Shown: positions 56,124 through 57,665 of the stretch, in pieces
How positions within the stretch are numbered: the stretch's first letter is position 1
Layout: each line of letters opens with the position of its first letter
Source: Promethearchaeota archaeon
GTDB lineage: Archaea; Asgardarchaeota; Lokiarchaeia; Sigyniarchaeales; SOKP01
Direction of reading: 5' to 3'
Length of the DNA: 64,000 nucleotides
NCBI GenBank assembly: GCA_030603385.1
Contig: JAUVXW010000002.1
Span: forward strand, 1-64,000
Made by a program: the position numbers and the translations under genes
Notes under the pieces: model-generated
The model's input: only the letters and a program-made list of their open reading frames with translations
What the model was told of the DNA's origin: nothing
Databases searched by the model: none

Positions 56124-56387
56124 GTGAAAATAATGGCGAAACTGGTTCCAGATACCGAAGAAAGCATGAATGAATGCAGAAAATTCTGCGGACCTTGTCC
56201 CTCGTTTAAACCAAACAAACTCAATGAGTTTGAGCCACACGCCCTGTTTTGTTCCAGAGGACAAACTGAAAAACCTATGGATCAAGTAGAAGATAAAGGT
56301 TGTAGTTGTTTTGGATGTGGATTATTCTCTCAATATGAGTTAAAGGGTGGATATTTCTGCATGCACGGAATTGAGGGAAGAAAATAA
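56124..56387 (+). CDS. DUF2769-like Cys-rich small protein
   Basis: CRKFCGPCPSF, LFCSRG, GCSCFGC, YFCMHG; followed by a T14 tract at 56407-56420. Confidence 0.75.
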   Translation: MKIMAKLVPDTEESMNECRKFCGPCPSFKPNKLNEFEPHALFCSRGQTEKPMDQVEDKGCSCFGCGLFSQYELKGGYFCMHGIEGRK

Positions 56388-56454
56388 AGATTAAAAAATT
56401 CTTTCATTTTTTTTTTTTTTATTTGATGAATAAGAATTTTTATTAAATATCACC

Positions 56455-56562
56455 ATGAATATTTTAAATGAACAAGTATTTCAAAAATTAATGAGAATTA
56501 ATAATCAGAACCAGGTAGGATTTCTTACCTTTAATTGCTGTATTTTTGGTTGTTGTTGTTAA
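56455..56562 (+). CDS. Cys-rich leader peptide (uORF) upstream of cysteine synthase
   Basis: MNILNEQVFQKLMRINNQNQVGFLTFNCCIFGCCC*; 5 Cys in the last 8 codons; alternative ATG at 56491. Confidence 0.65.
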   Translation: MNILNEQVFQKLMRINNQNQVGFLTFNCCIFGCCC

Positions 56563-56648
56563 ACAACAGTTTCATTAATTCTCACTTAACCATCAAAATT
56601 TATTCTCTCAAATAACACTTGTTTGGTTAAAATTGTAGAATTTTAATT

Positions 56649-57665
56649 ATGAATACTAAAATTAGGGATGTCAAAATGAAGTCAGCATCATATAATAATA
56701 GAAAAGGGAAAATAGGGATAAATAACAAATTACGAGTATATGAAAGAATTGAAGATTTAATTTCAAATAGAGAAAATCCTTCACCGTTAGTTAAATTGAA
56801 TGAAAGAATTAATCCGAATAAAAGATTTCCAATTTACATCAAATTGGAACGTTATAATCCTTTTGGATCAATTAAAGATAGGGTTGCTTATGCTATGCTT
56901 AAAGATGTTATATTTAAGGAGGGACAACGTATCATAGAGCCTTCATCTGGAAACACAGGAATAGCATTAGCTTCTTTAGCGAACGCAAGAGGGATTCCTA
57001 TTGAAATTGCTGTACCAAGTAGAATTCCAGAAGAAAAAAAAATACTTTTAAAATTACTTGGTGTGAAAGAATTATGGGAAGCTGATGATAACCTATGCCC
57101 TAAATTCCCTAACGAAGGCGCAAGAGGTGTAGTAAATGGAATTTTAATTAGTAAGGGAGGAGAACGATATTTTAATCCAGATCAATATGGAAATGACTTA
57201 AATGTAGAGGCTCATTATAGAACCACAGGTCCGGAAATCTGGGAGCAAACCAATGGAGAAATTGATTATTTTTTCGCAGCTACAGGTACAGGTGGCACTA
57301 TTACGGGAGTTGGGAAATATTTAAAAGAAAAAAAGCCGTCTATTAAAATTTTAGGGGTAGAACCATCAAATACAATACATAATATACCTGGTTTGAAGAG
57401 AATAACTGACCTTGATGATGAATTAATTCCGAAAATTTTAGATAAATCGGTAATTGATGAAATCTTAGAGGTAAGTGATGATAGAGCATATCAAACTGGT
57501 ATTGAATTGGCAAGGAAAAATGGTATCCTGGTAGGCCCTTCTACAGGTGCGATTTTAGCTGCCGCTCTGAAATTTGCTAAATCTCATGTCGGGTTAGCTG
57601 TTATTATTGCACCTGATGATGCTGCCAAATATATTAGTTCTTATGCGCCGTACATTAAAAAATAA
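56649..57665 (+). CDS. cysK: Cysteine synthase family (CysK/CysM, PLP)
   Basis: KLERYNPFGSIKDR, EPSSGNTG, TTGPEIWEQT, GTGGT, GPSTG. Confidence 0.88.
   Translation: MNTKIRDVKMKSASYNNRKGKIGINNKLRVYERIEDLISNRENPSPLVKLNERINPNKRFPIYIKLERYNPFGSIKDRVAYAMLKDVIFKEGQRIIEPSSGNTGIALASLANARGIPIEIAVPSRIPEEKKILLKLLGVKELWEADDNLCPKFPNEGARGVVNGILISKGGERYFNPDQYGNDLNVEAHYRTTGPEIWEQTNGEIDYFFAATGTGGTITGVGKYLKEKKPSIKILGVEPSNTIHNIPGLKRITDLDDELIPKILDKSVIDEILEVSDDRAYQTGIELARKNGILVGPSTGAILAAALKFAKSHVGLAVIIAPDDAAKYISSYAPYIKK

Follow-up and report, generated by a model that had tools for sequence, protein, structure and literature searches.

The question raised by this locus is whether an archaeon can use a short, cysteine-rich open reading frame as a leader whose translation controls the cysteine synthase-like gene that follows it. 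Leader-peptide attenuation is a textbook bacterial mechanism that needs coupled transcription and translation. The initial annotation of the window (the whole stretch of 64,000 nucleotides of an Asgard (Promethearchaeota) contig analysed here) had proposed a Cys-tRNA-sensing attenuator upstream of cysK and had called such a mechanism little documented in archaea. This agrees with our full-text literature search, of incomplete journal coverage, in which no archaeal leader-peptide control was found; as far as the literature found goes, this type of control has been demonstrated so far only in bacteria. If the proposal is true, the lineage closest to eukaryotes also uses leader-peptide attenuation, and an element of about 200 nt would let archaeal cis-regulation by ribosome stalling be tested, including the termination or initiation machinery that it uses.

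The leader ORF and its promoter

The following features define the promoter, the upstream ORF (uORF) and the cysK gene.

about 56446-56463, + strand: imperfect palindrome (AATAT, 8 nt, ATATT) overlapping the upstream edge of the TATA box, recognised by reading the sequence
56462-56469, + strand: TATA box of the leader promoter, which starts 29 nt and ends 21 nt before ATG 56491
56491-56562, + strand: uORF, predicted to be leaderless, 23 codons, MRINNQNQVGFLTFNCCIFGCCC, defined by its open reading frame and by conservation
56664-56678, + strand: Shine-Dalgarno-like site (56664-56670) and likely true cysK start codon (56676), from orthologue comparison
56676-57665, + strand: monocistronic gene of a CysK/CysM-family PLP enzyme (Pfam PALP)

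The uORF is located 3' of a DUF2769 gene (56124-56387), in the intergenic region before the PALP-family gene, and was unannotated at this locus. The Cys-run ORF described in the initial annotation was confirmed at its position: the Cys codons (56536-56541 and 56551-56559) occupy codon positions 16, 17 and 21-23, five of the last eight codons are Cys, and the frame is closed by TAA at 56560-56562. Given the genomic Cys frequency of 1.19% among long-ORF codons, five Cys in 23 codons has a probability of about 7e-6 per ORF. A longer form of the same frame begins at ATG 56455 and shares this stop codon. Because ATG 56455 is situated 5' of the TATA box and several orthologues lack it, we take the 23-codon form as the real uORF.

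To place the TATA box in its genomic context, TATA-like motifs were counted upstream of long-ORF ATGs; they peak genome-wide at -30/-29 (45-52 counts, against a background of about 20), and the start of the uORF TATA box at -29 matches this peak. A TATA-like element is present 21-22 nt 5' of the ATG in eight genomes and is placed similarly in the later contigs, as judged by reading the sequences. The sequence between box and AUG is variable, and conservation resumes exactly at the uORF AUG. The comparison thus bears out both the TATA-like box at 56462-56469 upstream of the in-frame ATG 56491 and, as far as promoter position and conservation can indicate it, the placement of a leaderless 23-aa peptide, both of which had been proposed from the window alone. 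The cysK transcript most likely begins at the uORF start codon, i.e. it would be leaderless, a reading that is coherent and rests on indirect evidence.

The palindrome at the TATA box is kept in most, not all, orthologous promoters, especially in those with an ArsR-family gene just upstream. It could be the operator of a DNA-binding repressor, a candidate for a second, transcriptional control of cysK. A run of 14 T at 56404-56420, directly 3' of the DUF2769 gene, looks like an oligo-T terminator that separates this gene from the leader promoter.

The downstream gene, its start and its setting

The protein encoded downstream of the uORF matches Pfam PALP with E = 5.7e-62 and the NCBIfam models cysKM, cysK and cysM below their cut-offs (for cysKM, 265 bits versus a cut-off of 344 bits), and its closest solved relatives are O-acetylserine sulfhydrylases. 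These matches place the probable target of the uORF in cysteine or sulfur metabolism. The gene is considered monocistronic, since the next gene on its 3' side, an MFS transporter, is on the opposite strand.

The longest ORF of cysK starts at ATG 56649, a codon that is replaced by GTG or ATA, or is out of frame, in the orthologues. Every orthologue retains ATG 56676, preceded at 5-7 nt by a purine-rich site. Since ATG 56649 is not conserved, the true start of cysK is most likely ATG 56676, and the spacer between the uORF stop codon and cysK therefore measures 113 nt. The distance of 86 nt from the uORF stop to the first cysK ATG, given in the initial annotation, is correct for 56649 and does not hold for the likely start. 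The locus annotation was corrected by adding the uORF and moving the cysK start to 56676.

The upstream neighbours of the module include ArsR, an Acr3/SBF transporter and DUF2769, which suggests a link between the supply of cysteine and the adjacent genes for arsenic and thiol stress. Regarding the charging of tRNA-Cys, CysRS is complete in the genome, so that free cysteine feeds tRNA-Cys. We also detected a SepRS-like match, cut by a contig end (G000:C13:4-870), and cysE was not detected in the genome at 94% completeness. Both routes to Cys-tRNA may operate in this organism, with O-phosphoserine as a possible substrate of its cysteine synthase. A Cys-tRNA supply through SepRS could bypass free cysteine, a point that counts against a cysteine sensor.

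Another PALP gene of the genome, 45% identical and located outside the window (G000:C33:41581-42766), has one in-frame TAG near its 5' end, and a 27-codon ORF with the pattern CxxCxxC...C lies ahead of the gene. This arrangement may reflect a split N-terminus, read-through, or a small gene of its own.

Distribution of the leader

To determine how widely the leader occurs, we searched genomes by DNA similarity and by motif. The DNA search recovered it in 8 of 135 genomes of the family, 7 of 54 from the genus of the window and 1 of 42 from another genus. A motif scan of all species-representative genomes returned seven archaeal records, which are the seven genomes of the DNA search besides the window's own; at NCBI they are labelled Promethearchaeota or Promethearchaeia, one Hodarchaeota and one 'uncultured archaeon'. 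In four genomes of the same genus the same leader accompanies orthologues of 83-89% protein identity, and metagenome contigs contributed five more copies. Nine further distinct leaders (L208, L209, L211, L213, L216, L218, L219, L220 and L223) precede orthologues that are 70-82% identical, three of them also being represented by the duplicates L210, L212 and L217. The same module is thus present in 21 distinct full leaders (alignment A4), drawn from eight species genomes and from metagenome contigs, with CysK proteins 70-100% identical.

Orthologues that are 68-73% identical were found in other contexts without the uORF. One adjoins genes for PAPS reductase and sulfite reductase, the context of the other contains DsrE, TusA and Rrf2, and the orthologue of genome G022 also lacks the uORF. 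Upstream of a 69%-identical orthologue in the DsrE/TusA/Rrf2 context there is a different, 34-codon ORF (L221:1317-1421) with Cys at positions 7, 8 and 11 (ICCIFC, which recalls the CCIF of the window), and this ORF may represent a leader that is degenerate or of an alternative kind. Proteins sharing about 70% identity with this archaeal cysteine synthase (P0067-P0120) carry the labels Deltaproteobacteria and Planctomycetota in public records. These bacterial-labelled relatives, together with the patchy presence of the gene (7 of the 54 genomes of the genus), suggest that cysK was horizontally transferred.

No uORF was found at the loci of paralogues about 40% identical. No other intergenic poly-Cys sORF was detected in the genome, where no Trp-rich or His-rich leader stood out either, which indicates that the element is single-copy per genome and has no regulon. 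A regulon of poly-Cys leaders was considered and rejected on the basis of this single locus and of the paralogues without uORF. A class-wide search for CCC-x-CCC returned only the cysK leader family and an unrelated protein motif or out-of-frame repeats. Among the loci read, a large share of the class-wide poly-Cys matches came from a family of Fer4-type proteins of about 375 aa, with Cys clusters typical of 4Fe-4S ferredoxin-like domains (G000:C40:10031-11152); its motif CCCC-D/G-CCC recurs at the same position in ORFs of similar length in many genomes of the class.

Three RNA-Seq runs yielded only contigs of relatives (90-95% alike), which cover parts of cysK and leave the leader itself uncovered. 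One contig of 348 nt from run X7, derived from a relative, covers 56649-56972, and the 24 bases before 56649 in it are the reverse complement of the leader segment 56576-56599. These inverted bases could have arisen as a cDNA artefact, by fold-back at a structured RNA, or through a rearrangement in the relative.

Conservation of the uORF and of the leader

Across the 21 sequences the uORF frame is open for 21-28 codons from the conserved AUG, its stop codon is always TAA, and 4-7 Cys codons are present within the last 8-13 codons in every case, with interchange of TGT and TGC. The other two frames contain 1-6 stops each. Insertions and deletions keep the frame, the length of the TGT run differs between sequences by whole repeat units, and the number and spacing of the Cys residues are variable. 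The first Cys cluster is located outside every conserved helix described below, yet it stays Cys. The alignment of cysK upstream regions therefore shows a Cys-codon uORF kept in 21 of 21 sequences through synonymous TGT/TGC changes, and not the mere microsatellite that the initial annotation had named as the contrary outcome.

Conservation does not extend to the rest of the peptide. Amino acids other than Cys are not conserved, and the variability of the uORF by codon position is 0.69, 0.64 and 0.54 bits; because third positions vary no more than the others, there appears to be no constraint on the peptide apart from its Cys codons. The non-coding leader is 69-87% identical in pairwise comparisons, against 36-58% at the four-fold sites of cysK. 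This higher conservation indicates that the leader RNA is under purifying selection. The 113 nt after the uORF are as conserved as the uORF itself.

These data bear on the possibility that the small ORF, intact in all 21 sequences, encodes a working Cys-rich micropeptide, e.g. one that binds arsenite or metals as a thiol ligand, produced alongside the cysteine synthase and involving no sensor. The module often adjoins ArsR and Acr3-type genes and the Cys-rich DUF2769 gene, as would suit such a ligand, but it also occurs without arsenic genes, beside HdrA-like, DsrE and histone-fold genes. Moreover, a functional peptide is at variance with a sequence that is conserved only in its Cys codons, with third positions that vary no more than the others and with Cys residues that change in number (4-7) and spacing, and a peptide gene does not account for 113 untranslated nucleotides that are conserved as well as the ORF. 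We consider a micropeptide quite unlikely.

Structure of the leader RNA

The leader of 176 nt folds at -32.5 kcal/mol, with z = -2.29 against dinucleotide shuffles, 3 of 200 of which fold as well. Consensus folds of 8 and of 20 sequences gave the same four helices (A:A', H1, B:B' and C:C'), which, with one additional motif, are located as follows.

56492-56502, + strand: helix arm A in the uORF start-codon region, 11/11 complementary to 56574-56584 (-11.5 kcal/mol)
56513-56530, + strand: hairpin H1 inside the uORF, from folding and the consensus fold
56551-56568, + strand: hairpin B:B', in which the terminal Cys codons (56551-56557) pair with post-stop bases (56562-56568) and the stop codon is in the loop, from folding
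56574-56584, + strand: helix arm A', candidate switch strand with partners A and, more weakly, D, from conservation
56586-56630, + strand: hairpin C:C' (56586-56592 with 56624-56630), a 7/7 repeat with a variable U-rich loop
56637-56644, + strand: motif D (AGAATT) running into a T run, from conservation

The pairings on which the initial annotation was built, i.e. 56492-56502 with 56574-56584, the UGU run with post-stop bases, the hairpin at 56513-56530 and 56586-56592 with 56624-56630, are all present. Over the 21 sequences, A:A' is paired in 94% of cells, H1 in 86%, B:B' in 98% and C:C' in 98%, and the four helices together pair in 93.7% of cells. The changes seen in B:B' are G-U changes only, and in C:C' a C-G pair became U-G in two sequences. 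Two pairs of H1 changed on both sides; the same bases encode the conserved Val..Leu-Thr, so that an RNA cause and a coding cause are inseparable for this hairpin. Compensatory base changes, for which the initial annotation had suggested looking, were too few: 3 of 30 helix pairs change on both sides, a count reached by 53 of 500 shuffles. For this reason the helices rest on invariance under saturated neutral divergence and not on covariation. The terminal UGU run could have been conserved as a helix arm instead of as codons, which would count against a sensor.

The strand A' has a core (56579-56583) that is invariant in 21 of 21 sequences, and the remainder is unchanged in 20 of 21. It has two possible partners, 56492-56502 or 56637-56645, and each of the two pairings is kept in more than 90% of cells. 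The second is possible in 91.6% of cells and is absent from the consensus fold; motif D pairs with 56577-56582 of A' at -4.5 kcal/mol, versus -11.5 kcal/mol for A:A'. The AGAATT of motif D does not vary among the 13 closest sequences, and 5 of the full set of 21 carry changes in it. When the region from 56586-56630 through motif D to cysK was folded without the 5' part, only the hairpin 56586-56592:56624-56630 was obtained. T runs of 4-6 occur at motif D in 11 of 12 leaders, and T runs of 4-8 occur in the C:C' loop in 9 of 12.

A TGT microsatellite combined with AT-rich inverted repeats and no function would explain part of this picture. In a genome with 31% G+C inverted repeats are common (17 were counted in 261 nt), a perfect inverted repeat of at least 11 nt, such as A:A', appears in 3.9% of dinucleotide shuffles, and the TGT run does vary by whole repeat units. 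Chance does not, however, explain a leader far more conserved than synonymous sites, nor one architecture maintained across 21 sequences down to 70% CysK identity. Such an origin is very improbable and is already contradicted by the conservation data in the 21 aligned sequences, which weigh more heavily against chance than the shuffling statistics or the Cys-codon probability.

Response of the leader to ribosome position in folding models

To explore how a ribosome could change the structure, the 21 leaders were folded with the ribosome-covered stretch forced open. The masks represented a stall at the first Cys codon, a stall at the last Cys codon, a ribosome at the stop codon and a queue extending back to the start codon; an extra state, with the start region alone masked, was added for the nine later leaders. 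In these models, which make the comparison with and without the ribosome-covered segment suggested in the initial annotation, H1 or B:B' is lost when the Cys codons or the stop region are masked, and the downstream structure stays unchanged. Only masking of the start region frees A', which then pairs with motif D and lengthens C:C' to a long hairpin that ends in the T run.

No consistent change in access to the cysK ribosome-binding site was observed across mask states in the 21 leaders modelled. Masking of the Shine-Dalgarno site or start codon was rejected as a read-out, the unpaired probability of the cysK start being about the same in five mask states for 12 sequences. Access to the cysK start falls only in the subgroup of L209, L211 and L223, with the uORF start masked. 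The divergent leader L216 keeps the design, and in every model an anti-SD hexamer located 8-13 nt after its stop codon pairs with its own SD.

Three other candidate mechanisms were also examined and rejected. A model in which the post-stop segment acts as an 'anti-start' was discarded since the duplex of 56563-56586 with the cysK start ranks 920 of 2203 when compared with the long-ORF starts of the genome, and is thus unspecific. A bacterial-type terminator was not supported, with 0 terminator-like sites in 56300-56800, where T runs of 4-8 occur without a G+C-rich hairpin. The alternative pairing of 56586-56592 with the UGGUU over the Gly-Cys codons (56547-56551), which was to serve as the switch in the initial annotation, fails as a conserved element, given that the GGT codon is found in only 5 of 21 sequences (G000, G019, G002, L090 and L208). 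Archaeal RNA polymerase terminates at oligo-U without hairpins, and any transcriptional read-out would therefore be wired differently from the trp type.

The Cys-tRNA-sensing attenuator of the initial annotation is thus sustained in one part only. The idea of sensing stands, with a conserved uORF, a leader under selection and a gene of the cysteine synthase family; the attenuator mechanism as it was drawn is unsupported, because the GGT pairing is not conserved, there is no terminator hairpin and masking the Cys codons has no downstream effect.

That Cys-codon masking gives no ribosome-dependent switch in the models is what would be seen if the leader were a structured cis-regulatory RNA, acting through protein or metabolite binding or through stability of the 5' end, with the open frame as a by-product of a UGU-rich helix arm. 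Its four conserved helices, the unpaired motifs 56655-56661 (invariant) and 56637-56642 (invariant in the 13 closest sequences) and a 5'-end helix that could protect the transcript are in line with such a function. The leader has no Rfam match, as only chance-level hits were obtained (E above 3, far below gathering scores). Furthermore, a by-product frame is difficult to reconcile with a first Cys cluster that stays Cys outside the helices via TGT/TGC changes, with frame-keeping indels, with start and stop codons that never vary across the 21 sequences, whose other frames are closed, and with the location of a Cys run before a cysteine synthase, which at P of about 7e-6 per ORF is an unlikely coincidence. 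We regard a structured RNA without translated leader as unlikely.

A ribosome-read cysteine sensor as the proposed explanation

Taken together, the sequence comparisons make it moderately probable that the leader is a leaderless, ribosome-read cysteine sensor that controls cysK. This interpretation is favoured because the uORF, its Cys codons and its TAA are kept in 21 of 21 sequences in which the other frames are closed, and because the leader precedes a gene of the cysteine synthase family, of which one orthologue lacking the leader adjoins PAPS reductase and sulfite reductase. It is also favoured by the helices kept in 86-98% of cells together with the TATA placement at the uORF, and by the fact that the principle of a leaderless poly-Cys sORF is proven in mycobacteria.

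According to the proposed mechanism, the cysK transcript would start at or beside the AUG of the 23-codon uORF, and a ribosome would load directly on its 5' end. Passage of this ribosome over the 4-7 terminal Cys codons would depend on charged tRNA-Cys; since passage needs the charged tRNA, ribosome occupancy of the leader would report cysteine supply and set cysK in cis. The ribosome would open or cover two structures, the 11-bp helix by which the 5' AUG is locked to a segment 14 nt beyond the stop codon, and the hairpin formed by the last Cys codons and the post-stop bases. We infer that the 5' helix may restrict uORF translation to a co-transcriptional window, and that the place reached by the pioneer ribosome, or by ribosomes queuing behind it, may select the partner of A' (56574-56584). 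This choice would in turn alter read-through of the U tracts or how the cysK start is used. If the element behaves like all known amino-acid leaders, stalling at low cysteine would be expected to raise cysK expression.

More tentatively, and as a possibility somewhat short of probable, we propose a specifically archaeal form of the sensor. A pioneer ribosome would be admitted until the 11-bp helix shuts the AUG and would report the charging of tRNA-Cys, and the read-out would be archaeal (oligo-U or factor-dependent termination, or start access), unlike both the trp-type and the mycobacterial ones.

Comparison with known attenuators

The classical amino-acid leader attenuators are trpL, hisL, pheL, thrL and ilvL, which are also cited in bioRxiv 10.1101/834739. 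The archaeal element has in common with them a short ORF in which codons for the product amino acid of the downstream gene are clustered, regulatory codons that pair with a post-stop segment (as in regions 1:2) and one strand with two possible partners. It differs from the trp type in having no G+C-rich terminator hairpin with a U tract (56300-56800), and its candidate switch strand responds in the models to occupancy of the start codon and not of the regulatory codons, unlike in the classical systems.

The actinobacterial precedent cited in the initial annotation is real. Leaderless poly-Cys sORFs of mycobacteria (Ms5788A / Rv0815A and further loci, together called the 'Cys ribulon') were shown by mutation to be cysteine-responsive attenuators, whose Cys tract base-pairs with the SD region of the following gene unless stalled ribosomes block it (bioRxiv 10.1101/834739). 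Common to these attenuators and the archaeal element are a predicted leaderless short ORF with a C-terminal Cys run directly before the stop codon, a position upstream of cysteine or sulfur genes, a strongly folded leader and a ribosome as the proposed sensor of tRNA-Cys.

The differences concern both origin and wiring. The archaeal element belongs to Archaea, has a TATA-box promoter and shows no sequence relationship with the mycobacterial leaders; it is a single locus per genome, whereas the mycobacterial sORFs form a regulon. Its Cys tract pairs with 56562-56568 after its own stop codon and not with the SD of the next gene. The archaeal SD is not masked in the models, in which masking of the Cys codons leaves SD access unchanged, and only the archaeal element locks its 5' AUG in an extra helix. 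Closest to the mycobacterial arrangement comes the L216 leader, whose anti-SD is situated after the stop codon and not in the Cys tract.
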